Assembly: GCA_028716245.1 (NCBI GenBank)
Contig: JAQUQW010000002.1
Span: 72,947-136,946 of the forward strand
Direction: 5' to 3'
DNA: 64,000 nt
Source of the DNA: Candidatus Omnitrophota bacterium
GTDB lineage: Bacteria; Omnitrophota; Gorgyraeia; Gygaellales; Profunditerraquicolaceae
A model generated the notes under the pieces. It did no database searches, had not been told where the DNA came from, and was given only the letters and a program-made list of their open reading frames with translations. This document shows positions 11,272-62,847 of the stretch, piece by piece. A program made the translations under genes and the position numbers. Within the stretch, counting starts at the first letter, position 1. Every line of letters begins with the position of its first letter.

Positions 11272-11311
11272 AGGCGAAACAGTTTCCCAGCTAATCGGGA
11301 AACAGGGTTAA
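11272..11311. repeat. family-2 repeat unit (CGAAACAGTTTCC + GCTAATCGGGAAACAG modules) flanking transposase 2
   Basis: Contains the near-palindrome GAAACAGTTTC and the AATCGGG module. Its inverted counterpart is at 11801-11847 on the other side of the transposase gene. Confidence 0.7.
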
Positions 11312-11788
11312 CTAAAGTAAAAATTTATTCAAAAGCCCGTAATTATTACCAAGATTTCTTTCCGTGTAACTGCAAAAAGTATAATCTTTGGGGCTGTTTA
11401 CTAATTTTGCCCTTACAGGGTTTGTTTCGATATAGGAAATACAGTCTAGCACATACCGATTTTTAACAATCAATTTCGCTTTAAATTTACCCTGCCAAAG
11501 ATGGCCAACCTTGTTGTATTTTTTATTATAATAAGCAGTATAGGAACGTTGCAGGCATTGCATAAAATTAGATAATTTTTCCGGCACGACCGGTTGCCCC
11601 ATCAAATGGACATGATTAGGCATTAAGCAGTAACCATATAGATGGAAAGAATACTTCATTTTGTAATGTTTTAGTTGTCCAAGGTAGAACCCGAAGTCAC
11701 TTTTTTCAATAAAAACTATTTGTTTCTGATTTCCTCTTGCATAAATATGATAACAGGCGTTTTCGATTAATATTCTTGTTTTTGTCAT
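11312..11788 (-). CDS. IS200-like Y1 (HUH) transposase, RAYT-like (copy 2)
   Basis: 158 aa with HUH motif (PNHVHLM), conserved YHIYARG N-terminus and the Tyr-containing C-terminal helix region (YIETNPVRAKLV). It has family-2 repeats on both sides. Confidence 0.8.
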   Translation of the reverse strand: MTKTRILIENACYHIYARGNQKQIVFIEKSDFGFYLGQLKHYKMKYSFHLYGYCLMPNHVHLMGQPVVPEKLSNFMQCLQRSYTAYYNKKYNKVGHLWQGKFKAKLIVKNRYVLDCISYIETNPVRAKLVNSPKDYTFCSYTERNLGNNYGLLNKFLL

Positions 11789-11800
11789 TTCTCCTCCTTA

Positions 11801-11847
11801 GCCCCCGTTTCCCGATTGGGTCGGAAACAGTTTCGGGTTTTGGGTTT
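11801..11847. repeat. family-2 repeat unit (CCCGATTGGG + GGAAACAGTTTCG modules)
   Basis: GCCCCCGTTTCCCGATTGGGTCGGAAACAGTTTCGGG is an inverted copy of the element at 11272-11311. Confidence 0.7.
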
Positions 11848-16265: not shown

Positions 16266-16777
16266 TTGAGCAGGAGCTAATTTTATTAGGCCTGTTACGC
16301 CAAAGCCCCAAGCACGGTTACGAAATTAAGGTAAAAGCGCGCGAAATCCTCTCCTCTTTTGCCGGAGTCCAGTTAAAGTCAATATATTACCCCCTAAGAA
16401 TTTTAGAAAAAAAAGGCCTGCTTACCAAGTGCGCGGATAAATTAGGCAGCAGGCCAAGGCGTTTTGTCTATTGCCTTACCGAAAAGGGTAAAGAGCGCTT
16501 TGAGATATTGCTTAATAAAAACCTGCTGGATTTTACGCGCCCCCAGTTTACTCTTGACCTAAGTTTATATTTCCTCAACTTCTTGAAACCAGCTTTAGCC
16601 CGGCGCCGGCTAAAGAAGAGGCTGGAAATTTTAGGAAAGATCTCCAGCGGCATAGAAAAGATGCTAAAAACCAAAGAATTAAAAGAATCCCTGGCGATTT
16701 CCCGGATTATGGAACATAATCTCTGCCTGCTGCGTGCCGAGTCTTCCTTCCTGAGTTCACTCCTCCAAAAAATTTAA
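16262..16777 (+). CDS. PadR-family transcriptional regulator
   Basis: PadR winged-helix signature (HGYEIKVKAREIL...YPLRILEKKGLL). The stop TAA at 16775-16777 overlaps the first bases of REPIN A. Confidence 0.75.
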   Translation: MIEQELILLGLLRQSPKHGYEIKVKAREILSSFAGVQLKSIYYPLRILEKKGLLTKCADKLGSRPRRFVYCLTEKGKERFEILLNKNLLDFTRPQFTLDLSLYFLNFLKPALARRRLKKRLEILGKISSGIEKMLKTKELKESLAISRIMEHNLCLLRAESSFLSSLLQKI

Positions 16778-16840
16778 ATAGGGACAGCGACCATTTTTCT
16801 CTAAGCTAAACTTCCAAAAAATGGTCGCTGTCCCTATTTA
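16776..16840. repeat. REPIN-like element A (family 1: AAATAGGGACAGCGACCATTTTT, 17-nt spacer, reverse complement)
   Basis: The left arm overlaps the PadR stop and the right arm AAAAAATGGTCGCTGTCCCTATTTA ends at 16840. Confidence 0.85.
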
Positions 16841-16896
16841 TTTAGGCATAAAAGACGTTGAAAATACTATGGTTAGAACAAGGTAACGGTTCAATA

Positions 16897-22524: not shown

Positions 22525-22566
22525 GTATCATCCCCATGTCCCGAACAACTTGGAAACAGTTTCGAT
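22508..22566. repeat. GC-rich hairpin (CGGGACAGGGG...CCCCATGTCCCG) overlapping the secretin-2 stop, plus a family-2 core GGAAACAGTTTCG
   Basis: 12-bp stem with one mismatch at 22513-22548. The palindromic family-2 core is at 22551-22563. A likely terminator/REP-like site. Confidence 0.55.
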
Positions 22567-22571
22567 AAATA

Positions 22572-25359: not shown

Positions 25360-25423
25360 GGGGATATCATGTTTAAGATTAAAAATGTCCAATTTGAAAT
25401 GTCCAATGTGAATAAAATAGGGA

Positions 25424-25479
25424 CAGCGACCGTTTTTTGGTCGTTTTGCTTAGAGAAAAATGGTCGCTGTCCCTATTTA
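25424..25479. repeat. REPIN-like element C (family 1, CCG variant of the arm)
   Basis: AAAATAGGGACAGCGACCGTTTTTT, a 13-nt spacer, then AAAAATGGTCGCTGTCCCTATTTA. Confidence 0.85.
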
Positions 25480-25586
25480 AAAAAGAGTATAATGCGCAAT
25501 GAAAACGAGTAGTTTACCCATTGAAAGAATATATGATAAATAGTATATTATCTGTAGATGAAAGAAGGGCAGCAGAAGAGGATGAA

Positions 25587-26932: not shown

Positions 26933-26968
26933 GCCCTATTTCCCGATTGGGTTGGAAACTGTTTCGGA
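26933..26968. repeat. family-2 repeat unit (CCCGATTGGG + GGAAACTGTTTCGG) immediately upstream of the giant gene
   Basis: GGCCCTATTTCCCGATTGGGTTGGAAACTGTTTCGGAGG. Its 3' end supplies the GGAGG ribosome-binding site 9 nt before the ATG at 26980. Confidence 0.7.
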
Positions 26969-26979
26969 GGAGTGGTTAG

Positions 26980-38900: not shown

Positions 38901-41900
38901 CACAGTGAACGTGGTTTTCTCCGGAGCCAATTCTTCTCCTTCGGCTAGCGCTCCTACCTGCACGAATAACCTGGCAGCAGATACCGCTTTTGGCACAAGC
39001 ACGGCGCTTAATTTTGTAAACGGTGTGGCAACTACTACCTTTAAGGCGTATAAAGCGGAAGTCACGCATATCAAGGCTACTGCCGGCGCAGCGACTACTT
39101 CGGATATCAATGCTTTAAATATCACGGTTAAACATGGGGCAGCCAACCACCTGAAATTCAGCGCGGCATTTACCGAGCCGCAGGGCGGTTTTCAGGCAGG
39201 CGTGGGATTTACTTTAAGCGTGTTGAACGGGGTAGATTTATACGACAATATCTGTGACGGAGCAAATGGCGCGACTGCTTACAGCGGGACAAAGGCAATT
39301 ACCTATGCTTTGAGCGGGACAGCCAATGCGCCGGATGGTTCTGCCCAGGATACCTATACTAACAGCGTTGTATTCAATGCCGGCCTTTCCACTTCAACTT
39401 TAAATACCACTTTGTATCGTGCGCAGACTACCAGTATCACTGCCAGCGATGCGCTTCTAACCGGCATAAACGCCGCTTCAGGTTCAATCATGGTTAATCC
39501 CAAGCCGGTTTCCAAGCTTTTCTTTACGCAGCAGCCTTCGACCGCTTCATTGACAAACGTGGCGCTGACGCAGCAGCCGATAGTTTCCGTAGCGGATATG
39601 TATGGTAATGCCGTAACCTCGGCCGTCGACCAGGTCACCCTGAAGGCTTCCACTACCACCGGCATTTATACCGCGGCAACCAATGGCACTCTTTCCGGCA
39701 CAGCCCTATCGGTAAATCTTGTCAACGGCAAGGCAGTGTTTAGCGGCATAAAATATAGCTACCCTGAAACCATATACCTTAAAGCCTCGGCTGCCAATGC
39801 CGCTGTGGTGGATATATATTCTTTTGGCATCGCCTTTGGCACGGCTACCGACGGGACTCTTACTGCCGGGCCGTTAGTCGAGCCGGCAGAGATATCTTCT
39901 ACGGTCGATTCCGATGGTGCAAGGGTAAATATTTTTGATTTTAAAGTCAGCGATGCCGGCACGGACGGTTATGGCATACCGATAAAACAAATCAGGATTA
40001 ACCGCAATACACTGGCGGATACAACCGGCGGCTGGTCAACTTATATTGCCGGAGCCAAGATTTCCGACGGCACCACCACTCTCTTAGGTACGATTACGGA
40101 TAATGTCCTGACTTTTGGCGCCGGCACCAGCACGATTTACACGGTTGCCGACGCAGGTAATAAGACATTTACCTTAAGCATCTACCTGAAACAAAGCCTG
40201 CCTGTGGGCGCGGACGGAAAGTTCCTCGGCTTCAGTATTAACCCGAATACCGATATAACCGTGGATGCAGTAGGTTCCCAGTTTACCACCGCCACCGCCT
40301 TGACCAGTTCTACTAAGGTGCAGGTAACCATAACCAAATTTATGGTTAGCGCAAGCGCAAGCAGTATGCTGGCGGGTAATGGGATTGCCATCAACATTAA
40401 GGGCACGGACATCAACGGTAACATCGATACCGATTACATCGGAGACAAAGAGATAATCTTTAGCGGGGCAAGCGTTGCTTCAACCGGCACAAACCCTACC
40501 TGTACTAACTATTCCGCAGTAGGCATAAATTTTGGCGGCATAACCCTGGTAAGCTTTGCTGCAGGCCAGAGTTCCTCTACCATAACAATGAAACTATACA
40601 AAGCGGAGACCGCTGTCATTAAAGCCACTACCTCTGATTCTTTGTTTACTACTTCCGCCGCCGATGCTTTGAATATTACGGTTACCGGCGGCGTTGCAAG
40701 CAAGCTTTCCTGGAATACTCAGCCGGTGGCTACAGTAGCAGCTAATGCCCCGTGGTCTGCGTTTAAAGTGAGCGTAGTTGATGCTTATGGAAATACTGCT
40801 TCCAGCGCAATTAATGTAACGGTTGCCCCTACCGGAGGCACTTTGAGTGCGGCAGCAACTGCTCAAGTTGCAGCGGTATCCGGCATAGCGACCTTCGATA
40901 ATTTTGCGGTGTATTGCGCAGCTTATCCGGGGACAGTTACCTTAAATGCTACTGCTGCTGGAGTTACCGCCAGCGGCGCATCTAATAATGTAACCGTAGG
41001 AGAAAAATATGCGATTACAATGAAAGCATTTGATTCGGTAAACGGCAGCCCATTGACCGAAGTCACGCTTAAGATTATCGATTCAAACACCGGCCTACTG
41101 GTTTCCGGCCTTACTAACCCGATAATCGGTAATAGCCCGTTTTCGTTTAATCTGCCTTACGGAAAATATAGTTTTAATTTTAATAAAACCGCCTACGTAG
41201 AGAGCACGGTTAATAAGACTGCGGATGTTCCTGCGGATGCGGTTGACGGCGCCTACGACAATAATATCAGCTGGACGGTGTTTCTGATGTCCACTGCTGA
41301 ATCTCTGGCGGATTACCGGGTATTAAGTAACTTTGTCTATGATGAAACTAATGACCGGATAACCGGCTTGGTGCGGCTGGAGAAAAGAGGTAAGCAGATT
41401 ACCAGCGATGCCATAAATACCCTAAGAACCAGCGCTTTAAATATCTTCGATAGTTCCGACGCGGTTAACCCTAAATATACCGCTTCATTGGCTACCTCCG
41501 ATGCAAACGGCAATTATTATTTTAATATTGATAATGCCGTAGCAGCAAAGGGTTTTGTCAAGGGCAGGGATTATTTTGCCAAGATGACTATTCTCTACGG
41601 CGGAGTTGATTTATCAACGAATGTAACGTATTCGGCGGCTAATGATTTTACGATCTCGGTAATGTCAACTTTAAATACCCTAGCCAACCAGATTGTGGCC
41701 TCGGTTGCATCCGAAGGGGCTCTTACCAGATCACAACTGACCTCGACAATAGAATCTACGGCCGCGGCTACTCAGGCACAGGTTGCCCAGGTAAGTACTC
41801 AGGCAGCGCAGATCTTAACCGCTACAGGCACTACCATACCTGCGCAGATCACTACAGCACAAACAGCGGTAACCGATACCATTGCTACCAAGGTTGAGCC

Positions 41901-43422: not shown

Positions 43423-43435
43423 ATATCATGAGAAT

Positions 43436-43551
43436 AAATAGGGACAGCGACCATTTTTCCCATTCTTTCCGTCATTCCCGCGTAAGTGGGAATCTGATCC
43501 CCGCTTTTGCGGATATGACAATTTTGAAAAAATGGTCGCTGTCCCTATTTA
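43436..43551. repeat. REPIN-like element F (family 1) with an extended 65-nt spacer containing two additional small hairpins
   Basis: Left arm at 43436-43460 and right arm at 43526-43550. The spacer has ATTCCCGCGTAAGTGGGAAT and CCGCTTTTGCGG hairpins. The right arm encodes residues KKWSLSLFI of the downstream signal peptide. Confidence 0.8.
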
Positions 43552-44297
43552 TTTTGTTTTTTATCCCAGCCTGTGCCTGGGCTGAAGTGAGCACTTCGCT
43601 TTGGCAGACCAAAAAATCCCAGCATTTTATTATTTATTATCAGGAAAGCGCCGATGATTTTGTCAATGAGCTGGATGTTTCAGCGGAAAATTATTATAAC
43701 AGCATCGTCGAAGAATTAGGTTTCCGCCGGATGGATTTCTGGAGCTGGGATGACCGGGCAAAGATATATTTATTCAATAACAGCGCCGATTATTTAAATG
43801 AGACCGGCGGCTTGGCCTGGAGCGGGGCGCAGGTTTCGGTAAAGCTACGCACGATCAAGACCTTTATCGGCCAGGAGACTTTTTTCGATTCTATACTTCC
43901 GCATGAGCTGACGCATATAATCTTCCGGGAATTTATCGGTACCAAAACAGAGCTGCCGCTTTGGCTGGATGAAGGTATCGCCTGTTCTCAGGAAAAAAGC
44001 AGCCTGATTTCGCGGATGGATTCAGCCAGGGCGCTGGTTAAGCAGGATACATATTTAAAATTTGATAAACTCTTCCAGATATATAACTCCACGCTTATCG
44101 TGCCGAATGTATTTTATTCCGAGTCCGCATCGATTATCGTTTTTTTGCTAAAAAAATATGACCGGGAATTATTTTTGGATTTCAGCCGGAAGCTTCGCGA
44201 CGGCATGCAGTGGAAAAACGCCCTTTTAAACACGTATCATTTTTCAAATTTTGAAGAAATGGAATCTGCCTGGAAGGATTTTATGTTGAATAAATAG
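43515..44297 (+). CDS. secreted putative zinc metallopeptidase (HExxH ... E)
   Basis: Signal peptide MTILKKWSLSLFILFFIPACAWA. HELTH plus a downstream LDEGIA is consistent with a gluzincin-like fold, but family assignment is uncertain. The stop TAG at 44295-44297 lies inside the REP arm. The ORF track start at 43428 would include the whole of REPIN F. Confidence 0.5.
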   Translation: MTILKKWSLSLFILFFIPACAWAEVSTSLWQTKKSQHFIIYYQESADDFVNELDVSAENYYNSIVEELGFRRMDFWSWDDRAKIYLFNNSADYLNETGGLAWSGAQVSVKLRTIKTFIGQETFFDSILPHELTHIIFREFIGTKTELPLWLDEGIACSQEKSSLISRMDSARALVKQDTYLKFDKLFQIYNSTLIVPNVFYSESASIIVFLLKKYDRELFLDFSRKLRDGMQWKNALLNTYHFSNFEEMESAWKDFMLNK

Positions 44298-47250: not shown

Positions 47251-48708
47251 ATGAAGATTGAAGCCTTAGACATAAAAGAAATCGGAAGGATCGAAGAGCT
47301 TAAGCAGGGGATTGTGAAAATCAGCGGTTTGCCTAATTGCGCCTATGGGGCTGTAATCGAATTCGATAATGGATTAAAAGGAATGATCGTTGAATTTGAC
47401 GCGCAATTTGCCTTTGGGATTGTTTTTGGGGATGAACGCAGGATTAAGGTCGGCGATACGGTTTCCACCCGCGGCCAGCTGCTTAATGTTCCGGTAGGGG
47501 ATAATTTTATCGGCAGAGTGGTTGATCCTTTGGGTAACCCGATAGACGCAAAAGGTAAAATTGAGCCGGCAGCGGTAAATCCGGTCTTCCATCAGGCATC
47601 CGGGGTTATGGAGCGCGAGCCAATAAGCCATCCTTTGCATACTGGGATAAAAATTATCGATATGCTTATCCCGCTGGGCAAAGGCCAGCGGGAATTGATC
47701 GTCGGAGACCGGCAGATCGGCAAAACCAGCATCAGTTTGGATATGATCATCAATCAAAAAGGCAAAAATGTTATCTGCATTTACTGTTGGATCGGAGGAA
47801 GCAGCGCGGCTTTTAATAAGATTATCCAGGTGCTTAACCAACAGGGTTGTATGGACTTTTGCCTTGCTGTCTGCGCCTCGGCAAGCGCCTCGGCAAGCGA
47901 ACAATATATTTGTCCTTATACCGCCGCGGCATTAGGTGAATATTTTATGTATAATGGTAAGGATGTCCTGGTAATTTTTGACGATTTGACTAAGCACAGC
48001 TGGGTTTACCGGCAGATGTCTTTGCTGCTTGAGCGGGCCCCGGGAAGGGAAGCGTATCCGGGAGATATCTTTTTCTTACATTCACAGCTTATGGAGCGCG
48101 CCGGCCGCCTGAAGAAAGAATTCGGAGGCGGGACAATGACATTCTTGCCGTTAGCCGAAACACTGCAAGGTGATATTACCGGTTATATCTGCTCGAATAT
48201 CGTTTCGATGACCGACGGGCAGATTTATTTAAACTCCGGGCTTTTTCAGGAAGGTTTCAAACCGGCGATCGATTTGGAACTTTCAGTTTCGCGTATCGGA
48301 AGCAAGGTGCAATGCCCGGCCATCCGTAAATTAAGTGAAGGCCTGCGTTATGAATACGTGCAATACCGTTCTTTACTGCGTTTGACCCGCCTGCGCACCA
48401 AACTTAGCCCGGAGAGCGCCCAGCAACTGCAGCGGGGCCGGGCCCTTTATGAGCTTTTGATTCAGGAAAACGGTTCTCCTTTATCTCAGGCAGAGGAGAT
48501 CGCTGTTTTTTTTGCCTTTCGCCAGAAGATACTTGAGTCAATCAGTATCGAGCAGGTAAAATTGTTTAAAAATAATTTCTTTGCCTATTTAGGCAAGCAT
48601 CAGCAGAATTTAGTGGGGCAACTGGATAGCAAAGGTGAGCTTACGGAAGAAATTAAACTGCTTTTGGATAAAACGATAAAAGATTTTTTCCGCAGCCAGG
48701 ATAAATAG
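47251..48708 (+). CDS. atpA: F-type ATPase alpha subunit (divergent)
   Basis: Walker A GDRQIGKTS and alpha-like N-terminal beta-barrel and C-terminal helical domains. It contains a 12-nt exact tandem duplication (47875-47898) encoding ASASASAS. The stop TAG overlaps the REPIN I arm. Confidence 0.8.
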   Translation: MKIEALDIKEIGRIEELKQGIVKISGLPNCAYGAVIEFDNGLKGMIVEFDAQFAFGIVFGDERRIKVGDTVSTRGQLLNVPVGDNFIGRVVDPLGNPIDAKGKIEPAAVNPVFHQASGVMEREPISHPLHTGIKIIDMLIPLGKGQRELIVGDRQIGKTSISLDMIINQKGKNVICIYCWIGGSSAAFNKIIQVLNQQGCMDFCLAVCASASASASEQYICPYTAAALGEYFMYNGKDVLVIFDDLTKHSWVYRQMSLLLERAPGREAYPGDIFFLHSQLMERAGRLKKEFGGGTMTFLPLAETLQGDITGYICSNIVSMTDGQIYLNSGLFQEGFKPAIDLELSVSRIGSKVQCPAIRKLSEGLRYEYVQYRSLLRLTRLRTKLSPESAQQLQRGRALYELLIQENGSPLSQAEEIAVFFAFRQKILESISIEQVKLFKNNFFAYLGKHQQNLVGQLDSKGELTEEIKLLLDKTIKDFFRSQDK

Positions 48709-48768
48709 GGACAGCGACCATTTTTTTGGCCGCTACACTTAGAGAAAAATGGTCGCTGTCCCTATTTT
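48703..48768. repeat. REPIN-like element I (family 1) between alpha and gamma subunit genes
   Basis: Arms are at 48703-48727 and 48745-48768. The first arm contains the atpA stop codon. Confidence 0.85.
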
Positions 48769-48780
48769 ATTTATTATTAA

Positions 48781-49623
48781 ATGATACCCGTAGGAAAGTT
48801 AAAATCAAACCTGCAATTTAATAAAAACCTCGGGGATTTAATTGAGGTAATGAAGTTGGCGGCAACCCTGCAGTTTAACCAGTTCCGCCTGAAACAGGAG
48901 CCTTCCGAAGATTCTGTCCGGTTTTTGGAAGAGATCCTTGGCATATTGTTTTCTTCGGGGGTAAAAGATGGCTTGCTGCAGCCGAAGGAGAACCTGCCTT
49001 CGCTTTTGCTTTTGATAAGTTCCGACGAAGGATTTTTAGGCGAACTAAACTTTCTTCTGGTAAATAAGCTGCTTTCTGGCCGAAGGCAGCAGGATAGAAT
49101 CGTCTGCTCAGGCCAGCAGGGGGCCAATTATCTAAGAGAGATCCAGATAGATTTTTCTTTTTTTGATTCACCGGGCGAAAAAATAGAAACTCAGCCATTG
49201 GCCAAGATAAGGGATTATCTCTTACGCCAGTATTTTGACCGTAAGGTCGGCAGGATTTATGTCGTTTATTCGCGTTTCACCAACATTACCCAGCAGCAGG
49301 CAGAGTTTGAAATCCTGCTGCCTTTGCCCCTAACTCCCGGTGCTTCCGGAAAGGGGCTGGCGCATCTTTTGATTGAGCCTGATTCTCGAGAGGTAATCAA
49401 AGGATGGATTAAATGCTGGTTGGATTTTCGCCTTTATCAAATATTCTGGTCAAGCAAGCTGGCGGAGTTTGCCGCCCGGGTTATGCATTTAGAAGGCAGC
49501 GTGCAGGAATTAGGCAAGATCAACAGCCATTTGCGCATGGAGTATTTTAAATACCTGCACGGTTTATCTGATAAATCAGTGCGTGAATTGACTGCGGCCC
49601 GGCTAATCGGGAAAGAAAGATAA
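48781..49623 (+). CDS. atpG: F-type ATPase gamma subunit (divergent)
   Basis: 280 aa. The N-terminal helix GKLKSNLQFNKNLGDLIEVMKLAATLQF and the C-terminal helix are gamma-like. Confidence 0.65.
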   Translation: MIPVGKLKSNLQFNKNLGDLIEVMKLAATLQFNQFRLKQEPSEDSVRFLEEILGILFSSGVKDGLLQPKENLPSLLLLISSDEGFLGELNFLLVNKLLSGRRQQDRIVCSGQQGANYLREIQIDFSFFDSPGEKIETQPLAKIRDYLLRQYFDRKVGRIYVVYSRFTNITQQQAEFEILLPLPLTPGASGKGLAHLLIEPDSREVIKGWIKCWLDFRLYQIFWSSKLAEFAARVMHLEGSVQELGKINSHLRMEYFKYLHGLSDKSVRELTAARLIGKER

Positions 49624-51021
<1,398 letters not shown>

Positions 51022-51023
51022 AT

Positions 51024-52643
51024 ATGTCGACGAATAAATTATTAGGGGAGATGCTGGTAAAAAGAAATTGTATTACCCAGGAGCAGCTTGATCAGGTGCT
51101 TAAGGACTCTGTCTGCCAGGAGGATATGCTTGGGGCTATTCTGGTGAACAAGGGCCTGTTAAAAGAAGAGGATTTGCTCAAAGCGCTTTCTGAACAGTTC
51201 AATTTACCGTTTTTTGCCCGCTTAAAAGACGCCCATATCTCTACGGAGGCGATTAAAGCCGTGCCGGCAAAATTCGTCAAGCACTATGGTTTTATGCCGA
51301 TTAGTTTGGAGGGTGAGGCTTTGACTGTGGCGGTATTTAATCCCATGGATGTTTGGCTGGCGGAAAATATCAAATTGAACCTGGGGTTTAGGGTCAGCCG
51401 GATTTTAACTTCCCGCCGCGAGGTGGAGGCGGCGATACATAAATATTACGGGGCAGTGGCCGGAACCGTCGATAAGATCATGGAAGAGAAGATCGGCCAG
51501 GGCACAAAGTTAGCCAAGGATGAGAGCGTTGAAGATATTGAAAAAAACGCGGGCGAAGCATCGGTGATCGAGCTGGTTAACCAGATAATCAGCGAGGCAA
51601 TCAAGATGCGCGCCACGGATATCCATATTGAGATATACGTGGACAAGGTAGTCTTACGTTACCGTATTGACGGGGTCCTTCGGGAAATGAAGATGCCCCA
51701 GGACGCTTATTATATAGAGCCGGCGATTGTTTCGCGGATTAAAATTATGTGCCATTTGGATGTTGTCGAACACCGCATTCCGCAGGACGGCCGGGCAAAG
51801 GTGCGCTTGCTTGACGGGCAGGAAGTAGATTTAAGGGTTTCGATATTACAGGGGTATTTCGGAGAAAATGTGGTTATCCGGATCCTTCCTTCCCAGGTGT
51901 TGTTAGATTTAGATAAAATTGGGTTTGCCCCCGAAGATTTAAAAACGATCGTGAAGCTTTTGCAAAAACCGCACGGGATTATCTTAATTACCGGGCCTAC
52001 CGGAAGCGGTAAGACCACCACGCTTTATACCTGTTTAAGCCGCCTGAACCGTAAGGAGGTAAAAATTATCAGTATTGAAGACCCGGTTGAATACGCCATT
52101 GAAGGGATAACCCAGATCCATGTTAATCCCAAGGTGGGCTTAACTTTTGCCAGCGCCTTGAGAAGCGTCTTAAGGCATGACCCGGATATTATGATGATCG
52201 GTGAGATTCGTGATTCTGAGACCGCCGACCTGGCAATCCGCTCATCCCTTACCGGGCATTTGGTTTTCTCCACCTTGCATACTAATGATTCTGCCAGTGG
52301 TATTGCCCGGCTTATGGATATGGGTATTGAGCCCTACCTTTTAGCTTCTTCGGTTGAGGTAATTATCGCCCAGCGCCTGGTGCGCCTGCTCTGCCCGTTG
52401 TGTAAAGGCAAGGGGTGCGAATCTTGCAGTGAGACGGGATTTAAAGGGAGAAAGCCGATATATGAAATTATGCTTATCGATAATGAAATCCGCGGGATGA
52501 TTACCGAACATAAGAACGCCCAGGATATTAAGGCCAAAGCCAGGGAAAAAGGCATGCGCACGCTTATGGAGAATGGTATGCTTTTGGTCCAAGAAGGTTT
52601 AACGACTAAGGAAGAGATCATGCGCGTGGTGGAGTTGGAATAA
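51024..52643 (+). CDS. gspE: type II secretion / type IV pilus assembly ATPase GspE/PilB
   Basis: N-terminal T2SSE_N-like domain, Walker A GPTGSGKTT and the tetracysteine motif CPLCKGKGCESC. The ATG at 51024 follows a GGAGAG RBS. The ORF track start at 50997 overlaps atpD. Confidence 0.9.
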   Translation: MSTNKLLGEMLVKRNCITQEQLDQVLKDSVCQEDMLGAILVNKGLLKEEDLLKALSEQFNLPFFARLKDAHISTEAIKAVPAKFVKHYGFMPISLEGEALTVAVFNPMDVWLAENIKLNLGFRVSRILTSRREVEAAIHKYYGAVAGTVDKIMEEKIGQGTKLAKDESVEDIEKNAGEASVIELVNQIISEAIKMRATDIHIEIYVDKVVLRYRIDGVLREMKMPQDAYYIEPAIVSRIKIMCHLDVVEHRIPQDGRAKVRLLDGQEVDLRVSILQGYFGENVVIRILPSQVLLDLDKIGFAPEDLKTIVKLLQKPHGIILITGPTGSGKTTTLYTCLSRLNRKEVKIISIEDPVEYAIEGITQIHVNPKVGLTFASALRSVLRHDPDIMMIGEIRDSETADLAIRSSLTGHLVFSTLHTNDSASGIARLMDMGIEPYLLASSVEVIIAQRLVRLLCPLCKGKGCESCSETGFKGRKPIYEIMLIDNEIRGMITEHKNAQDIKAKAREKGMRTLMENGMLLVQEGLTTKEEIMRVVELE

Positions 52644-52644
52644 A

Positions 52645-53883
52645 ATGATATTTTTATATAAGGCTAAGAAAAACCTTAAGGAGGTTGTCGAGGGCAAAAT
52701 CGACGGGGGCAGTGTCGAGCAGGTGCTTGAAGATCTGCAGGCAAAAGGGCTTGTGCCGATTTCCGTCGAGCCGTTAATCGGCCCGCCTGTTTCCGCAGCG
52801 GCATCCGCAAAAACTTCCCCCAAACCCGAAACAGTTTCCAACCCAATCGGGAAATGGGGTTTAAAAAACCTAGTTTTGTTCACCCAGAAACTTTACAATC
52901 TGGTTAATTCCCGCGTAGAGTTACTTAGCGCCTTAAGGCTTTTAGAAAAGGACTGCCAAAATCAGACCGAAAAATTATTACTTTCCGATATCATAAAGAA
53001 TATTAAAGACGGTGTTTCATTTTCCAATTGCCTTAGCCGCTACCCGCAGTATTTCCCGCAATTTTACGTCAATATTGTCCACACCGGCGAGGCAACCGGC
53101 AAGCTCAAAGATTCCCTGATCCAACTTTTGGACTATCTGCGCCGGTTTGAAGATTTAAGGACCAAGGTAAAACAGGCGCTTGCTTATCCAATATTTATGA
53201 CTTTGGTTGGCGTAGGCACGATATTTGTAATGCTTACTTTTGTCCTGCCGAGGCTGGCCGGGATGTTTGAAGATTTTCAGGCGCAGCTGCCCTTACCCAC
53301 ACTTATTTTACTCAATATCGCGAATTTCCTTAAAGCTTATTGGGTATTTGTAATCGGATTTATTGTTATTCTTGTCTTTGCGTTTAAGGTCAACGGCGCA
53401 GGCAAGGAAAGTGTTTTTAGCCGCCTGAAATATCATATTCCCATTGCCAAAGATATTGTTTATAAACAGTCGGTGGCCAACTTTTCCAGAAGTTTATCCC
53501 TGCTTTTGCAAAGCGGAGTGAACCTGCTTTCCGCCTTGGCCGACGCCGGTCCGATAATCGGCAATCCGGTTTATGTCAGCCAACTTGAACAGGTGCGCCG
53601 TGATATCAGCCAAGGCATGCCTTTTTCAGACTCCTTGGCCAAATTCAAAATCTTCCCGGATTTTTTTGTGCAGATGATCCGCGTCGGCGAAGAAGGCGGC
53701 AGGCTGGACAGCGTACTGGCGGATATCGCCGAGTCTTATGAAAAAGAGATTGAGGCAGATTTAAAGGTCGTCAGTTCCCTTATTGAACCGGCGATAATTT
53801 TGGTCCTGGGCCTGGTGATCGGGGCGATGGTTATTGCCATGCTCCTGCCGATATTTAATATGAACAGCCTTGTCGGTGGCTAA
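52645..53883 (+). CDS. gspF: platform protein GspF/PilC
   Basis: 412 aa. The N-terminal FLYKAKKNLKEVVEGKIDGGSVEQVLEDLQAKGLVPISVEP is the typical GspF/PilC start, followed by two T2SSF domains with three TM segments. It carries a family-2 repeat in frame at 52825-52859. Confidence 0.85.
   Translation: MIFLYKAKKNLKEVVEGKIDGGSVEQVLEDLQAKGLVPISVEPLIGPPVSAAASAKTSPKPETVSNPIGKWGLKNLVLFTQKLYNLVNSRVELLSALRLLEKDCQNQTEKLLLSDIIKNIKDGVSFSNCLSRYPQYFPQFYVNIVHTGEATGKLKDSLIQLLDYLRRFEDLRTKVKQALAYPIFMTLVGVGTIFVMLTFVLPRLAGMFEDFQAQLPLPTLILLNIANFLKAYWVFVIGFIVILVFAFKVNGAGKESVFSRLKYHIPIAKDIVYKQSVANFSRSLSLLLQSGVNLLSALADAGPIIGNPVYVSQLEQVRRDISQGMPFSDSLAKFKIFPDFFVQMIRVGEEGGRLDSVLADIAESYEKEIEADLKVVSSLIEPAIILVLGLVIGAMVIAMLLPIFNMNSLVGG
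52825..52859. repeat. family-2 repeat unit (CGAAACAGTTTCC + CCCAATCGGG + GGAAATGGGG modules) embedded in frame in gspF
   Basis: Translated as PKPETVSNPIGKWG in the linker after the N-terminal cytoplasmic domain. The ORF stays open. Confidence 0.75.
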
Positions 53884-53884
53884 T

Positions 53885-53950
53885 AAATAGGGACAGCGAC
53901 CATTTTTTGTTCGCTATCCCTATTAAAAAAATGGTCGCTGTCCCTATTTA
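53885..53950. repeat. REPIN-like element J (family 1) directly after the gspF stop
   Basis: Arms are at 53885-53908 and 53925-53950. The spacer contains a partial extra arm copy (TCGCTATCCCTATT). Confidence 0.85.
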
Positions 53951-53961
53951 TTAAGATAATT

Positions 53962-55335
53962 ATGAGAACTAAAGTAATCATAGAGCTTGCGGAGTCCTGC
54001 CTTAAGGTTGTTATCGGCCGTAAGGTTGCGGTTGAGCCTCTGGCCAGCACTGAACCGGCGGTTATTTCCAACACTTTAAGCTTGATATTAAAACAAAATA
54101 AATGCGGCAAAAATTTTGATGTTTTCGTGGTGTTTAACCGCAATAAAATAACTGTGCGCCGCCTAGACCTGCCCTCCCAAGACCCCAAGGAACTCGAACA
54201 GATGCTGGGCCTCTGCCTCGTGCGCCAGATCCCCTATCATAAAGAAGAGGTTTGCTGGGCATATCAGAATTTAGGGTTTGACGGCACAAGCAACAGCCAC
54301 CTGATTTTGGCCATTGCCTTAAAAAATGTTTTTAAAAATGTGGTCAACGCTTTTATTCCCATAAATATCCTTCCGGAAGCCATATTAATGAGCTCGCAAG
54401 GTCTCCTGCATTATGTGGCTGAAGCATGCAAAGATAAATCTTTACTGCAGGGTTCATACCTGATCCTGGATATTGACGCAAACTATAGCGACCTGGTGCT
54501 GGTGGATGAGCGTAAGTTAGGCTCAAGCGTGGTGATACCGCAGGGGGCAGTCCAGTTAAAAAACGAGCAGGAAAAAGAAAAATTTGCCATTGAATTGAAG
54601 CAGGCGCTGGTTGCCTTGAATAACGAAATCCCCGATGCCAAATGCGACAGATTATTCTTAACCGGCGCCTCAGCAGCGTATCTTACCCTTATCGAGTCAG
54701 CCCTGGCCAGGGATTTTAATTTGAAGGCGCAGTATATCTCTTCCAAGGAGTACGATAATTTCATCTCCGGAGGCTTAAAGGATATTTCTTTATCCGCGGT
54801 GCTGGGGTTTAGTTCGCAGATAGCCAAAGATGATATTAAATTTGTTGTCCCCGAGCTGCAGGTAAAAAAAGAAATGAAATCCAAGGTGCAGCAACTGATG
54901 ATCCTGGGGGTGGTCCTGGTTTATATCCTGATTTCTTTAGGCGGAATTGCTTTGCTCAGGCTTATTCAGCAGCAGCTTTATTCAGCCAGCCTTAAGGAGA
55001 GGGTCGTTTCTTTAGGTAAAAAAACCAAGGACCTGGAGGATATTACCGAAAAATTAAAAATTGCCAAACAATACGCGGATCCCAAGTCTTCGGTATTATC
55101 TTCCCTGTATTCGCTAAATAGGTTGTGCCCGGAGAGCGTAACCATTACCAATTTTAATTGGGAACTTCAAAAGAGCCTGTCTTTTAGAGGATACGCTCAA
55201 CAGATACCCGATATTTTAACTTTTACCAATACTCTTAGTAATTCCGAATCTTTTAAGGGCGCGCAAAACCGTTACACCCGCAGGCGTAAATTAAAAGATA
55301 AAGATGTGGTTGATTTTGAGGTGGTCGTAAAATGA
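53962..55335 (+). CDS. PilM-PilN fusion (GspL-like inner-membrane assembly protein)
   Basis: 457 aa. The N-terminal ~300 aa is an actin-like PilM/GspL cytoplasmic domain. This is followed by a TM segment (LMILGVVLVYILISLGGIALL) and a PilN-like periplasmic domain. Confidence 0.6.
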   Translation: MRTKVIIELAESCLKVVIGRKVAVEPLASTEPAVISNTLSLILKQNKCGKNFDVFVVFNRNKITVRRLDLPSQDPKELEQMLGLCLVRQIPYHKEEVCWAYQNLGFDGTSNSHLILAIALKNVFKNVVNAFIPINILPEAILMSSQGLLHYVAEACKDKSLLQGSYLILDIDANYSDLVLVDERKLGSSVVIPQGAVQLKNEQEKEKFAIELKQALVALNNEIPDAKCDRLFLTGASAAYLTLIESALARDFNLKAQYISSKEYDNFISGGLKDISLSAVLGFSSQIAKDDIKFVVPELQVKKEMKSKVQQLMILGVVLVYILISLGGIALLRLIQQQLYSASLKERVVSLGKKTKDLEDITEKLKIAKQYADPKSSVLSSLYSLNRLCPESVTITNFNWELQKSLSFRGYAQQIPDILTFTNTLSNSESFKGAQNRYTRRRKLKDKDVVDFEVVVK

Positions 55336-55865
55336 GAAAACTAACCACCAAGGAAAAAATATTATCGCTATGTATCGGTTTATTGTTAGGGTTATTTGCG
55401 GTTAAAAGTTTTGTCCTGGGCCCGATATATGAAAAAACCGCTGTTTTTTCCGCAGAGATCGAACAGTCTAAAATGGCCATCCATAAATACCTGGCCTTGG
55501 AACATAATCGCCCGGGAATTCTTAAGGCGCAGAAACAAATCGAAGGTTATTCCAGCCTTCGGGGCTCTGATGAAGAGAAATCAGCGATGGTGATGAGCAA
55601 AGTTGAGGCTGAGGCCAGGAAATCCAAACTGCAAATATTAGATATGAATGTTATCGGTTCCACCAAGGTAAAAGGCGGAGTAGTGACGCTTTACCGCGTT
55701 TCCTTGCGCGCCGAAGGCCAGCTGAAAAATATTTTGGATTTTATTTCCGGTATTGAAGGGGCCAACATTTTGTTGCAAGTTGAGAAAATCACTTTGTCTG
55801 CCAAGGATGAAACTGGGAGCGTCTTAAAAATAGACACCACTATATTAGGAGTTTCATTTTCATAG
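55332..55865 (+). CDS. PilO/GspM-like inner-membrane protein
   Basis: 177 aa with an N-terminal TM, a coiled-coil region and a periplasmic domain. Its position between the PilMN-like gene and the pseudopilin gene supports the call. Confidence 0.55.
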   Translation: MRKLTTKEKILSLCIGLLLGLFAVKSFVLGPIYEKTAVFSAEIEQSKMAIHKYLALEHNRPGILKAQKQIEGYSSLRGSDEEKSAMVMSKVEAEARKSKLQILDMNVIGSTKVKGGVVTLYRVSLRAEGQLKNILDFISGIEGANILLQVEKITLSAKDETGSVLKIDTTILGVSFS

Positions 55866-55866
55866 A

Positions 55867-55921
55867 CCCCATTTCCCCTTCAGGTCCGAAACAGTTTCGA
55901 TTCTAAAGAGGAAATGGGGCC
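55867..55921. repeat. family-2 repeat: 10-bp stem CCCCATTTCC/GGAAATGGGG enclosing the palindrome CGAAACAGTTTCG
   Basis: Perfect inverted repeat at 55867-55876 and 55912-55921, with the palindromic core at 55888-55900. It lies between the pilO-like and gspG genes. Confidence 0.8.
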
Positions 55922-55943
55922 ATAAAGCTATAAGGAGATTATC

Positions 55944-56369
55944 ATGAAAAAAGTTTTCGCTCCGTTAGGAATAAGACAAGGATTCACTTTGATTGAGTTA
56001 ATACTGGTAGTAATTATTATCGGAATTTTGTCGGCGATGGTCGTGCCGCGGCTTGCCGGCCGCTCCGAGCAGGCGCGCGCGCAGGCGGCAAAAACAGATA
56101 TTAATTCCAGCATCCCTCTTGCCCTGGATCTTTATGAAATGGATATGGGCCATTATCCCGAATCCCTGGATTACCTGAGGACGCGTCCGGCAGGGGACGC
56201 CGATAACTGGCATGGGCCATACTTAAAGAAGAAGCCGGTGGATCCCTGGAATAAGCCTTATCTATATAAAGCCCCGGGCGACCATAATCAGGAGGGCTAT
56301 GATCTTTCTTCTGCCGGCAAGGATGGGCAACCCGGCACAGCAGATGATATTGTAAATTGGAGTGAATAA
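55944..56369 (+). CDS. gspG: major pseudopilin GspG (type II secretion)
   Basis: Prepilin leader with QGFTLIELILV cleavage/methylation motif and the GspG signature DPWNKPYLYKAPGDHNQEGYDLSSAGKDGQPGTADDI. Confidence 0.88.
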   Translation: MKKVFAPLGIRQGFTLIELILVVIIIGILSAMVVPRLAGRSEQARAQAAKTDINSSIPLALDLYEMDMGHYPESLDYLRTRPAGDADNWHGPYLKKKPVDPWNKPYLYKAPGDHNQEGYDLSSAGKDGQPGTADDIVNWSE

Positions 56370-58294: not shown

Positions 58295-58306
58295 ATATTA
58301 AATAGA

Positions 58307-58371
58307 TAAATAGGGACAGCGACCATTTTTTCTTGGTCGCGTAGATGAAAAAATGGTCGCTGTCCCTATTT
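58307..58371. repeat. REPIN-like element K (family 1)
   Basis: Arms are at 58307-58331 and 58347-58371, with the inner mini-hairpin CGACCA...TGGTCGC in the spacer. Confidence 0.85.
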
Positions 58372-58386
58372 AAATGAGGTTAAGTT

Positions 58387-61525: not shown

Positions 61526-62754
61526 TGGAAAAAATCGCAATTACCGGTATTGGAGTTGTCAGTCCTTCGGGTATCGGAAAGCGGCAGTTTTGGGCAAACC
61601 TTAAAAGCGGTCGTTCATTTATTAAAGAGATTACCCGTTTTGACGCTTCACTATACGCTGCGCATATCGCCGGACAGATTGATGATTTGGAAAAATACAG
61701 CCATATCTCCGAAAGGCTTTTAAAAAAAATCGATGCTTTTTCGCATATGGCGCTGGTTGCTTCGGAGATGGCCCTGCAGGATGCCGGGATCGATATTAAA
61801 AATGAGGATCCCAATCTTGTGGGGATTTTTTTGGGCAACGCTATCGGCGGCTGGCTCTATGCCGAAACTGAATTAAGGGATTTATATTTAGAGGGCCGGG
61901 AAGGTGTTTCACCTTATATGGCCTCTGCCTGGTTTCCCGCCGCTCCCCAGGGACAGGTCTCCATTTATTATGGAATAAAAGGTTTTAGTAAGACCGTGGT
62001 CAGCGACCGGGCCAGTTCTTCGATGGCTTTAGGGTACGCCCGGAAAGTTTTAGCGAAAAATAAACTGAATATGATTTTGGCAGGCGGTATGGAGGCTCCG
62101 GTTACCCCTTATGCCTTATTATGCTGTAATACCTATGGGGCGCTATCCAAAAATAATCATAATCCCCAGGGGGCGTACCGGCCATTTGATAAACAGCGCA
62201 ATGGTTTTGTAATCGGCGAGGGCGCCGGAATTGTAGTCATGGAAAGTGTCCGGCGCGCCCAAAAAAGAGGCGCAAATATCTTGGGGGCAATCTGCGGATA
62301 CGGCACGACTTGCGACGGGGTGGACAGGATCAATTGTGCCAGCGACGGAAAAGAGCTGGCGCGGGCAATTAATATGGCGCTTAGTGACGCCAAGGTAAAT
62401 CCCGAAGAGATCGGTTATATTAGTTTAGATGGTTTAGCAGTTGATCTCTGGGATAATTCTGAAATCAAAGCTTTAAAGATGGTTTTCGGGGATAATTTAA
62501 AGAATATTCCGTTGAGTTGCCCCAAATCCATGTTTGGAAATTTGCTTGGAGCATCGGGTGTGCTGGATATGATTATCGCGCTTTTAACTATGAAGCATAG
62601 TTTAGTCGCCCCGACTTTAAATTTAGAGGTTCCGGCTTTAAATAATTTAAATTATGTGGCCAAGAAAGCCAGGGAATATAAAGTAAACAAGTCTTTGATC
62701 ATCTCGCGCGGCCGCGGCGGGATTAATGCGGTTTTAGTAGTTGAAAAAAACTAG
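61525..62754 (+). CDS. ketosynthase-like protein lacking the Cys-His-His triad (chain-length-factor-like partner)
   Basis: KS fold (ITGIGVVSP..., GGMEAPVTP), but the active-site Cys position reads SDRASSSMA, the first His position reads ISLDGLAV and the second reads KSMFGNLLGASG. Its start overlaps the upstream KS stop (ATAATGG). Confidence 0.75.
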   Translation: MEKIAITGIGVVSPSGIGKRQFWANLKSGRSFIKEITRFDASLYAAHIAGQIDDLEKYSHISERLLKKIDAFSHMALVASEMALQDAGIDIKNEDPNLVGIFLGNAIGGWLYAETELRDLYLEGREGVSPYMASAWFPAAPQGQVSIYYGIKGFSKTVVSDRASSSMALGYARKVLAKNKLNMILAGGMEAPVTPYALLCCNTYGALSKNNHNPQGAYRPFDKQRNGFVIGEGAGIVVMESVRRAQKRGANILGAICGYGTTCDGVDRINCASDGKELARAINMALSDAKVNPEEIGYISLDGLAVDLWDNSEIKALKMVFGDNLKNIPLSCPKSMFGNLLGASGVLDMIIALLTMKHSLVAPTLNLEVPALNNLNYVAKKAREYKVNKSLIISRGRGGINAVLVVEKN

Positions 62755-62840
62755 AAACAGTTTCCAAGCTAATCGGGAAACAGTTTCTGCTTTAACTTGG
62801 AAACAGTTTCGAAGTTAAAGAGGAAATGGGGGTAAAGGGA
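62754..62840. repeat. composite family-2 repeat cluster (three GAAACAGTTTC cores plus AATCGGG and GGAAATGGGG modules)
   Basis: AGAAACAGTTTCCAAGCTAATCGGGAAACAGTTTCTGCTTTAACTTGGAAACAGTTTCGAAGTTAAAGAGGAAATGGGGG. It includes the hairpin TTAACTTGGAAACAGTTTCGAAGTTAA. Confidence 0.8.
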
Positions 62841-62847
62841 GGGTAAA

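Follow-up and report, generated by a model that had tools for sequence, protein, structure and literature searches.

In Escherichia coli, BIMEs are clusters of REPs in alternating orientation that lie in intergenic or operon-internal spacers, influence mRNA stability and bind IHF and gyrase. By definition REPs are extragenic, and copies within genes are generally regarded as neutral. In-gene repeats are already known, both as intragenic REPs and as the Rickettsia palindromic elements (RPEs). RPEs were reportedly described by Ogata et al. in 2000 as mobile palindromes that lie in frame in protein-coding genes. These elements have been reviewed (PMC10969869). Passages of Di Nocera, De Gregorio and Rocco (2013, BMC Genomics 14:522; PMC3733652) describe REPs inside annotated genes that are translated in frame, and propose that they lie in flexible linkers, loops or protein termini. 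REP/REPIN-RAYT systems include TnpA_REP/YafM of E. coli with its REP/BIME sequences and the REPINs of Pseudomonas fluorescens (Bertels & Rainey 2011, PMC3116915; Bertels et al. 2017, PMC5581495).

Here we analysed a 64-kb stretch of an Omnitrophota MAG (the window) with a repeat family, family-2, that has one copy within a gspF/pilC gene. A literature search found no paper that pairs Omnitrophota with "repetitive extragenic palindromic". In the window, as in the REP/REPIN-RAYT systems, one small HUH/Y1 transposase gene sits between short palindromic repeats of its own family, the units lie predominantly outside genes and inverted doublets can fold into hairpins. A further parallel is the varying number of units per cluster at orthologous sites, and the RAYT gene is syntenic and may be vertically inherited. 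Family-2 differs in its host, an uncultured Omnitrophota lineage, in a perfect 11-nt palindrome, GAAACWGTTTC, with arrays at an exact 23-nt period, in the absence of a GTAG/CGTC tag, and in a RAYT score slightly below the equivalog cut-off of NCBIfam. Tandem clusters of units in spacers are shared with BIMEs, although period and sequence are unrelated.

The gspF copy also has counterparts among repeats inside genes. As with RPEs, the frame used is open, the place is one tolerated by the fold, and the copy is retained across species. However, RPEs measure 100–150 bp and add 30–50 residues, whereas the gspF unit measures 35 nt and adds no net length; in addition, RPE-1 has no established link to a RAYT. 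The gspF copy likewise resembles the intragenic REPs in the passages of PMC3733652, of which the tail of the secretin in the same window is a textbook case. In those passages intragenic REPs are insertions relative to shorter homologs, whereas the gspF linker has kept its length and its unit ends in a 3′ third of ancestral coding sequence. Furthermore, the gspF copy is retained in the orthologs of many species with conservation of synonymous sites, and these passages mention no such case.

A REP/REPIN family and a RAYT-like gene

Judged from its sequence, family-2 belongs to the REP/REPIN type of repeats. Its 11-nt core, GAAACWGTTTC, occurs at 10 sites in the 64-kb window, which count as 21 strand matches against 1.2 expected, and related loci contain 46 further distinct family-2 units. 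The family consensus, ..AAAnnC-GAAACWGTTTC-CnnnnnAATCGGGAAAYGGGG, has neither a GTAG nor a CGTC tag, which places family-2 outside both super-families of Di Nocera et al. Eight of the 10 cores lie within the 5.7% of the window that is outside long ORFs. A search of the whole window against Rfam at the gathering threshold returned no family.

Doublets and arrays of family-2 are predicted to fold strongly into REPIN-type hairpins, with single-stranded DNA folds at 22470–22570 (z −7.75), 55860–55925 (z −4.41) and 62740–62845 (z −4.8). The first of these contains an inverted doublet of REPIN type at the end of the secretin gene (22486–22566, unstranded; −27.2 kcal/mol). The last 11 codons of the secretin ORF (20311–22524), ETVSDSIGTGG*, are encoded by the first unit of the doublet and are read in the same ETVS frame as the gspF copy, in agreement with the proposal that two genes in the window carry an in-frame repeat; most secretin orthologs end about 13 aa earlier. 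The second fold corresponds to a palindromic doublet with one shared core between a gspM-like gene and gspG (55867–55919, unstranded). Among related loci, for which gspG was located by tblastn, 12 of 33 hold a family-2 element in this spacer, and in close relatives the copy is absent or replaced by unrelated palindromes. The third is an array downstream of fabF whose three cores repeat every 23 nt exactly (62751–62831, + strand), and one related locus, L008, carries an array at the same position. Between atpG and atpD, locus L013 has a REPIN and the window has an empty site. Family-2 thus shows presence/absence polymorphism between relatives, of a kind in which insertion and deletion are indistinguishable. 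An oppositely oriented singlet at 26934–26968 (− strand), which matches the gspF copy at 33 of 35 positions, abuts the ribosome-binding site (GGAGGAG-N9-ATG) of a 5207-aa ORF (26980–42603).

The window encodes, in one copy within its 64 kb, a RAYT-like Y1 (HUH) tyrosine transposase of 158 aa (11312–11788, − strand; Pfam Y1_Tnp, PF01797, E 1e-10). Its sole NCBIfam match, NF047646 REP_Tyr_transpos, is full length and reaches 77.4 bits, just below the curated cut-off of 80. A PDB search with the single RAYT sequence gave no match; only the family profile reached TnpArep (4ER8, E 3e-6), with ISDra2 TnpA at 0.011. The protein contains the sequences MPNHVHLM and YIETNPV. Residues H58, H60, Y118, N122 and P123 are invariant in 40 homologs and line up with the corresponding motifs of 4ER8; the HxH motif and predicted catalytic tyrosine in a YI..NP context are the features by which a RAYT is recognised.

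The RAYT gene is flanked on both sides by one to three GAAACWGTTTC cores, in the window as well as in four other genomes (L051/L052, L053, L054/L055). In the window, one unit lies just past the 3′ end of the gene (11273–11307, + strand) and points the opposite way to the unit on the other side, which lies directly upstream of the RAYT ribosome-binding site and is 32/35 identical to the gspF copy (11803–11837, − strand). RAYT orthologs with 65–85% identity are syntenic, always directly downstream of a ComM/Mg-chelatase-like gene. The original prediction, which had named family-2, did not connect it with REP/REPIN repeats or with the RAYT gene of the window.

The in-frame copy in gspF

The gspF/pilC platform-protein gene (52645–53883, + strand) has an intact ORF of 412 aa, as predicted, and its product is orthologous throughout. 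The product matches T2SSF (PF00482) in two stretches (E 2.6e-57) and is 100% identical to an NCBI Omnitrophota MAG protein (P0001). The neighbouring ORF, 50997–52643, matches T2SSE (E 3.6e-129), while genes downstream match PilN and T2SSG, both above the Pfam cut-off, and T2SSM_b, below it (E 0.0082, 16.5 vs 21.7 bits). Two T2SSF domains, a length of ~400 aa and an adjacent GspE ATPase gene identify the product as a GspF/PilC platform protein.

The sequence at 52825–52859 (+ strand), CCCGAAACAGTTTCCAACCCAATCGGGAAATGGGG, is exactly the 35-mer quoted in the original prediction. It begins on a codon boundary and is read as residues 61–72, PETVSNPIGKWG, or PETVSNPIGKW(G). At up to three mismatches, the 35-mer recurs in the window at 11803–11837 (− strand) and 26934–26968 (− strand, 33/35), with 0.00 recurrences expected from shuffles, and the gspF copy agrees with the consensus of the other copies at 36 of 38 defined positions. 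The 11-nt palindromic core, GAAACAGTTTC (52828–52838, + strand), encodes E-T-V-S from either strand, and the REP unit is stop-free in all six frames.

The AlphaFold2 model (m1105aadb2e97) contains an N-terminal beta-beta-alpha-beta domain at residues 2–43 (52648–52773, + strand; pLDDT about 85), which is conserved across all GspF orthologs, a predicted disordered inter-domain linker at residues 46–68 (52780–52848, + strand; pLDDT <50), and a helix that begins at residue 73. The in-frame unit therefore lies where it had been predicted, in the linker after the conserved N-terminal domain, and the fold would be expected to tolerate it there. Linker lengths range from 12 to 30 aa among orthologs, and in the alignment of 120 orthologs the linker varies in length and sequence, except for its REP-encoded 3′ part.

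The unit had been called complete, but not all of it is repeat-derived. Specifically, the ortholog alignment assigns the last 11 nt, GGGAAATGGGG (52849–52859, + strand), to the ancestral G-K-W-G codons capping the helix at residue 73. GK(W/Y/F)G is kept in 120 of 120 orthologs, G69 and G72 are nearly invariant, and the exact 11-mer is found in REP-less orthologs (L021, L025, L029, L031–33). The same 11 nt coincide with the terminal half-core plus GGGG of the REP family. In the window, eight of nine matches to GGGAAAYGGGG are REP termini; 3.5 such sites are expected by chance per window, counting both strands. The last 11 nt are pre-existing coding sequence, older than the REP, and the REP-derived part of the gspF copy comprises at most about 24–27 nt. 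In the window this body is CCC GAA ACA GTT TCC AAC CCA ATC, encoding PETVSNPI (52825–52848, + strand). A "complete repeat unit" within a gene can thus be partly ancestral coding DNA that resembles a repeat terminus.

The alignment did not reveal the predicted ~12-aa insertion relative to orthologs. The median linker length is 22.5 aa with the repeat (n = 18) and 21 aa without it (n = 96), the alignment of REP-bearing and REP-less orthologs is gap-free over the site, and REP-less orthologs have unrelated codons, equal in number, in place of the REP body. Linker lengths and the gap-free alignment together rule out a simple insertion of 12 aa or 8 aa. Homologs that lack the repeat are shorter by about its length for the secretin tail, but not for the gspF linker. 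Because REP-bearing linkers are not longer and there is no clean insertion footprint, the acquisition event is not reconstructable.

Several other candidates were rejected. The gspF unit is a singlet (ssDNA fold z −1.07) and, folded alone on both strands, does no better than shuffles (z about −1); a stable local hairpin was discarded as an explanation of the copy on this ground, and for the same reason a structural role of the unit has no energetic support. A −1 frameshift at an A_AAA_AAC heptamer (52863–52869) after the G-rich stretch was dropped, the heptamer being present only in the window, L013 and L056, as was a small ORF from an ATG within GGGAAATGGGG, since many family copies have GGGAAACGGGG. 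As a separate motif, AATCGGGAAA is not enriched (12 matches vs 9.6 expected).

Conservation of the gspF copy among orthologs

Repeat-like DNA occupies the same codons in 14 independent assemblies including the window (NCBI, JGI and Logan), at 78–93% amino-acid identity. The REP body is present only in the clade with at least 78% amino-acid identity, and in a neighbour-joining tree REP-less orthologs either fall outside the REP-bearing group or are degenerate members nested inside it. The core is intact in 12 of the 14 orthologs, where only the centre base toggles between A and T. Decay is seen in L018, with a broken core plus a 7-codon insertion, and in L061, with GTTAC; several proteins (P0008–P0011, P0015, P0021, P0022) have amino-acid changes at the repeat, and the spacer codon varies among almost all orthologs. 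The comparison shows the gspF copy to be real and old, and no assembly artefact.

The synonymous sites of the gspF repeat are the most conserved in the gene. The sample for the statistics comprises 8 codons from 14 related sequences. Top-codon frequency at the repeat is 0.924, compared with 0.719 gene-wide, the best of 283 windows along the gene (P = 8e-5 in an amino-acid-matched test). Individual counts are 13/13 for GAA, 14/14 for GTT, 13/13 for ATC, 14/14 for AAA, 13/14 for GGG and 11/12 for CCA; the same GK codons in REP-less orthologs are GGA, GGC, GGT or GGG, and AAA or AAG. By Fitch parsimony, the repeat has 0.88 synonymous steps per column vs 2.86 for the gene (P = 1e-4), and of its seven steps five are either at the W position or in the first position of the spacer. 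Per-site conservation in gspF is correlated with the profile of the REP family (Spearman 0.51, P = 0.002), a relation somewhat inflated by the pattern filter with which the profile was gathered.

Synonymous positions are frozen unless the REP family leaves them free, which implies constraint at the nucleotide level, though not a universal one in view of the decayed copies. The gspF copy appears to evolve as a REP and not as ordinary coding DNA, with variation at the positions that vary across the family. The original prediction had described the repeat as tolerated in a gene that it presumed essential; the open ORF and the disordered linker agree with this, but the word understates the conservation of synonymous sites across 14 orthologs.

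Origin and maintenance of the gspF copy

We favour, with a probability of roughly 70%, the reading that the gspF 35-mer belongs to the REP/REPIN family of its own genome, was acquired once in the ancestor of the sub-clade and has since then been under nucleotide-level constraint. The route of acquisition and the reason for the constraint can be pictured as follows. The REP family is linked to the one RAYT-type Y1 transposase of the window (11312–11788), which presumably mobilises it. In the ancestor of a sub-clade of Omnitrophota, a REP body of about 24–27 nt would have come into the disordered linker that joins the N-terminal domain of GspF/PilC to its first helical bundle, directly 5′ of pre-existing GKWG codons that by chance equalled the REP terminus. 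The join would look like a complete unit because GGGAAATGGGG equals the family's own terminus, and the protein would tolerate the unit because it is stop-free in six frames and the segment is flexible; net linker length would have remained unchanged. Most likely, we infer, REP-specific machinery still recognises the site, with the RAYT or host factors acting on a DNA or RNA hairpin, GTTTCC-N10-GGAAAT; alternatively, the gspF site may be homogenised against the other REP copies.

One alternative is that an old REP fragment persists as linker codons, with protein-level selection on ETVS-x-PI-GKWG and shared ancestry as the only forces, which we regard as unlikely. The predicted disordered linker, where inserts are harmless, the decay in L018, L061, P0008–P0011, P0015, P0021 and P0022, the lack of a significant fold in the single unit, and the view in passages of Di Nocera et al. 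2013 (PMC3733652) that linker-located intragenic REPs are probably neutral are all in line with such a passenger. It is at odds with a synonymous substitution about 3-fold below the gene average, at the extreme of 283 windows, with variation at the free positions of the REP family and not simply at third codon positions, and with the hypervariability of the remaining linker. It is also doubtful that family-2 serves the host mainly for regulation (as an operator, promoter-proximal site or RNA element), a proposal compatible with REP origin, under which the gspF copy could be an internal control point of a gspEFLMG operon or could pair in trans with oppositely oriented copies, for example at the ribosome-binding site of the 5207-aa ORF. 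Nucleotide-level constraint at the gspF copy would fit such a role, as would the many copies that end 10–27 nt ahead of a start codon or ribosome-binding site, the exact 23-nt period of the arrays, the copy at 26934–26968 (− strand), 33/35 complementary to the gspF copy at the RNA level and abutting the giant-ORF ribosome-binding site, and the presence of copies at secretion and surface genes (secretin, gspF, gspG, a PKD protein and the giant ORF). However, a promoter and terminator scan of 52500–56200 found nothing at the repeat, with sigma-70-type counts no higher than in shuffles, on a consensus that may not suit Omnitrophota; no Rfam family matched, copies occur in both orientations relative to their neighbours and also between convergent genes, and close relatives lack the gspM–gspG copy or have unrelated palindromes instead. 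Dimeric helix-turn-helix operators do not typically have half-sites at a distance of 6 bp, which also counts against regulation of this kind.

Recurrent events, in which GGGAAATGGGG serves as target or microhomology anchor and REPs are repeatedly inserted or gene-converted without host-level selection, are improbable. IS200/IS605-type enzymes insert beside short specific targets, which counts in their favour, together with the greater age of the exact 11-mer, the rarity of such sites and their near-restriction to REP termini, and a spacer codon that differs in nearly every ortholog, fitting different donors. Nevertheless, REP-bearing orthologs form a clade, consistent with one acquisition; L029, with the exact 11-mer and family-2 repeats nearby, and L007, with the 10/11 variant GGAAAATGGGG and 24 cores, both have a REP-less gspF; a 23-nt unit would break the frame; and the REPIN insertion at atpG/atpD in L013 lacks such a target. 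Chance resemblance and an assembly artefact, both raised in the original prediction, and likewise a chimera, have a negligible probability: 0.00 chance matches are expected, and the same sequence recurs at the same codons of an intact ORF in 13 further independent assemblies.

Under the single acquisition followed by constraint that we favour, a conserved secretion/pilus gene has retained a REP across many species of an uncultured phylum. The REP-RAYT family of Omnitrophota, with its 11-nt palindromic core, 23-nt-period arrays and no GTAG/CGTC tag, is itself undescribed. We put forward only speculatively that the in-gene REP is a selected cis-element kept for use at the DNA or RNA level, as a site for the RAYT or a host factor or as an RNA–RNA pairing partner. 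If this is true, pairing with the REP on the ribosome-binding site of the 5207-aa ORF (33/35 complementary) would couple platform expression to REP-bearing transcripts, and the REP would be a dual-use coding-plus-regulatory sequence conserved across species. The favoured reading, if upheld, would provide direct comparative evidence of nucleotide-level selection or homogenisation at a single REP locus, and would bear on what REP-RAYT systems do for their hosts.

A family-2 repeat unit in the GspF linker

The 35-mer that had been noted in frame within a platform-protein gene is present at window positions 52825–52859 (+). Its first base opens a codon of ORF 52645..53883, in which it specifies residues 61–72, PETVSNPIGKW(G). 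The ORF contains two T2SSF stretches (E 2.6e-57), identifying its product as the GspF/PilC platform protein. It is preceded by a gene for the GspE ATPase and followed by a PilN-like gene, by a gene whose weak T2SSM_b similarity (E 0.0082) does not reach the Pfam cut-off, and by gspG. A Candidatus Omnitrophota MAG at NCBI encodes a GspF protein 100% identical to that of the window. The repeat identity of the 35-mer is far above chance. Specifically, two other copies occur at three or fewer mismatches, versus 0.00 expected, the 11-nt core GAAACWGTTTC is found at 10 sites (21 strand hits versus 1.2 expected), and the gspF copy agrees with the consensus of the other copies at 36 of 38 defined positions. 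An A_AAA_AAC heptamer (52863–52869), 3′ of the G-rich end of the repeat, is in a frame that fits −1 slippage; it is probably incidental, since it is seen only in the window and in the related loci L013 and L056.

In an AlphaFold2 model of GspF made from 59 orthologs (mean pLDDT 79.8), residues 2–43 form a beta-beta-alpha-beta N-terminal domain, residues 46–68 have pLDDT below 50, and a helix starts at residue 73. The REP-derived residues 61–68 lie within this predicted disordered linker, and GKWG, the conserved motif directly after the linker, is modelled as a helix cap. All six frames of the 35-mer are free of stop codons, and its palindromic core encodes ETVS on either strand.

The genes for F1-type ATP synthase alpha, gamma and beta (47251–51021) run straight into gspE (50997–52643), whose start overlaps the end of atpD, an unusual neighbourhood that recurs in locus L057. 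In L013 (9914–10010) and L018 (149–210), the gspF frame extends upstream, starting …LEFKYKAKKNL versus MIFLYKAKKNL, so the gspE–gspF junction differs, and another inserted element is possibly behind it.

Family-2 as a REP/REPIN family with its probable RAYT

Family-2 is a REP/REPIN family with its probable REP-associated tyrosine transposase (RAYT), because the repeats behave as REPs and a RAYT-like gene is flanked by family-2 units. The gene, 11312..11788 (−), encodes a 158-aa Y1/HUH transposase (PF01797) whose sole NCBIfam match, at full length, is NF047646, 'REP-associated tyrosine transposase' (77.4 bits, just below the cut-off of 80). By a profile built from 40 homologs, its best solved relative is E. 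coli TnpArep (PDB 4ER8, E 3e-6), with ISDra2 TnpA at 0.011, and the HxH and YI..NPV motifs align between the family and 4ER8. Inverted family-2 units lie on either flank of the gene in the window; RAYTs 65–85% identical, also with flanking units, are found in four other Omnitrophota genomes, and in all those genomes a ComM/Mg-chelatase-like gene is directly upstream.

Eight of the 10 cores fall within the 5.7% of the window outside long ORFs, and inverted doublets and arrays have ssDNA fold z scores of −4.4 to −7.8. The atpG–atpD gap carries a ~80-nt REPIN doublet in L013 (6852–6923), a 92%-identical relative, and is empty in the window (49615–49630), with a 3-nt spacer. Relatives contain arrays of 3–5 cores with an exact 23-nt period, six of them in L007 (551–653, 6753–6855, 9870–9972, 13157–13213, 17568–17624 and 18168–18224). 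Each L007 array is palindromic as a whole, T-centred units being followed by A-centred units, and one array separates gspE from gspF; a possible reading of the unit is a hairpin, GTTTCC-N10/11-GGAAAC, with a single W before the next. REP–RAYT systems and REPINs have been described in detail (PMC3116915, PMC5581495). Family-2 has neither the GTAG nor the CGTC tag by which the known REP super-families are marked (PMC3733652), and no paper in the library searched pairs Omnitrophota with "repetitive extragenic palindromic".

The secretin+TPR gene (20311–22524) has a 13-aa C-terminal tail, SNKGETVSDSIGTGG and stop, which comes from the first unit of a REPIN doublet (22486–22566) read in the ETVS frame, as in GspF. 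Most secretin orthologs end …RVKELE(Q/N), and only the homologous proteins P0242 and P0244 also have the tail, a clear-cut example of a REP that landed on a stop codon. The family-2 copy in the gspM–gspG spacer, 3 kb 3′ of the gspF copy, is missing from close relatives or has other palindromic repeats in its place. This spacer (window 55866–55943; loci L001, L006, L007, L008, L013, L014, L016, L017, L021, L056, L058, L059 and L062) is an operon-internal hotspot with different palindromic families in different genomes: 12 of 33 loci have family-2; elsewhere the element is GTAG-tagged (GTAGGGGAGGTTTAAACCTCCCCTAC type) or belongs to the GGGGACGGTTCT or the CATTGCGAGG type, and some genomes lack any. 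This suggests either that a hairpin is repeatedly needed ahead of the major pseudopilin gene or that the spacer is permissive to landing repeats. Another repeat family, family-1, forms inverted pairs (AAATAGGGACAGCGACCATTTTT ... AAAAATGGTCGCTGTCCCTATTT) at 53881–53963 and at at least 11 more, intergenic, sites (e.g. 16772–16853, 25411–25492, 43432–43564 and 58304–58385). These pairs lie directly after stop codons and look terminator-like; in P0245, from one relative, family-1 is read through as the protein tail NRDSDHF.

Origin of the in-gene unit

Comparison of 120 GspF orthologs (65–100% identity, 398–415 aa) reveals no trace of the ~12-aa insertion that had been anticipated. G-K-(W/Y/F)-G is kept in all 120, and the median distance between VE and GKWG, taken as linker length, is 22.5 aa in the 18 orthologs that have the repeat and 21 aa in the 96 that lack it. 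'ETVS-x-PI' together with repeat-like DNA (28–35 of 35 identical) is confined to the closest clade, at ~78% identity or above; orthologs farther out have unrelated codons in equal number and no gap at the site. The original reading of a complete family-2 unit holds for the match to the repeat and fails for its 3′ third: the exact 11-mer GGGAAATGGGG is plain coding sequence in REP-less orthologs (e.g. L021, L025, L029, L031–33), so this part is older than the repeat. A REP body of ~24–27 nt may have replaced part of the length-plastic linker, or been compensated within it. GGGAAAYGGGG is a rare sequence, with 3.5 matches expected per window, and eight of the nine observed are REP termini, so it is unlikely to be by accident that a REP body abuts an older sequence resembling its own terminus. 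By inference, this suggests that acquisition was target-directed or microhomology-directed.

Constraint on the in-gene repeat

In codon alignments of 14 orthologous gspF genes from independent assemblies (78–93% amino-acid identity), the REP segment uses GAA (13/13), only ACA or ACT (13/13), GTT (14/14), TCC (12/14), CCA (11/12), ATC (13/13), GGG (13/14) and AAA (14/14), in contrast to a hypervariable upstream linker and conserved flanking residues with mixed codons. Its mean top-codon frequency is 0.924 versus 0.719 gene-wide, the top of 283 8-column windows (P = 8e-5, amino-acid-matched resampling). The in-frame unit had been described as tolerated, which it is, but it is more than that: by Fitch counting along a neighbour-joining tree, the REP segment has 0.88 synonymous steps per column versus 2.86 (again the extreme window, P = 1e-4), and its seven steps include five at the W of the palindrome centre and the first base of the spacer. 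In addition, per-nucleotide conservation in gspF correlates (Spearman 0.51, P = 0.002) with the conservation profile of 46 family units from outside gspF, with some circularity from the filter by which those units were collected.

The constraint is not absolute. The L018 linker (380–430) has a broken core, GAAATTGTTTC, and a 21-nt, 7-codon insertion inside the unit (GGC CGG CAG GCA GGC AGT TCA, containing a GGCA-type repeat); in this lineage the in-gene repeat is decaying and GspF is intact. L061 reads GTTAC instead of GAAAC, and ETVS is altered in several GspF proteins.

The ssDNA fold of the single gspF unit is not significant, Rfam matched no family, and no sigma-70-type promoter signal is found at the gspF repeat. 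A REP singlet at 26934–26968, identical to the gspF copy at 33 of 35 positions and in opposite orientation, sits (26934–26979 region) immediately at the ribosome-binding site, GGAGGAG, of a 5207-aa ORF (26980–42603). This giant ORF includes tandem repeats of 159 nt as well as long Gly-rich (GGN)n tracts (27319–28065, 30724–31357). RNA from this singlet would be a near-perfect complement (33/35) of the gspF mRNA segment.

The classic example of palindromic inserts read in frame is the RPEs of Rickettsia (reviewed in PMC10969869). Intragenic REPs have been catalogued, with the proposal that those in linkers are neutral (PMC3733652). The in-frame REP of gspF belongs to this already known kind, but differs in its Omnitrophota host and repeat architecture, in having no net insertion and a partly ancestral 'unit', and in its synonymous conservation across species. 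The best-supported reading is that an ancestor of the sub-clade captured a resident RAYT–REP unit, in frame, in the GspF linker, and that the captured unit is still under the nucleotide-level constraint typical of the REP family. This constraint may come from a RAYT or host factors recognising the GTTTCC-N10-GGAAAT hairpin and core, from a role of the RNA, which may include pairing with REPs of opposite orientation, or from repeated gene conversion.
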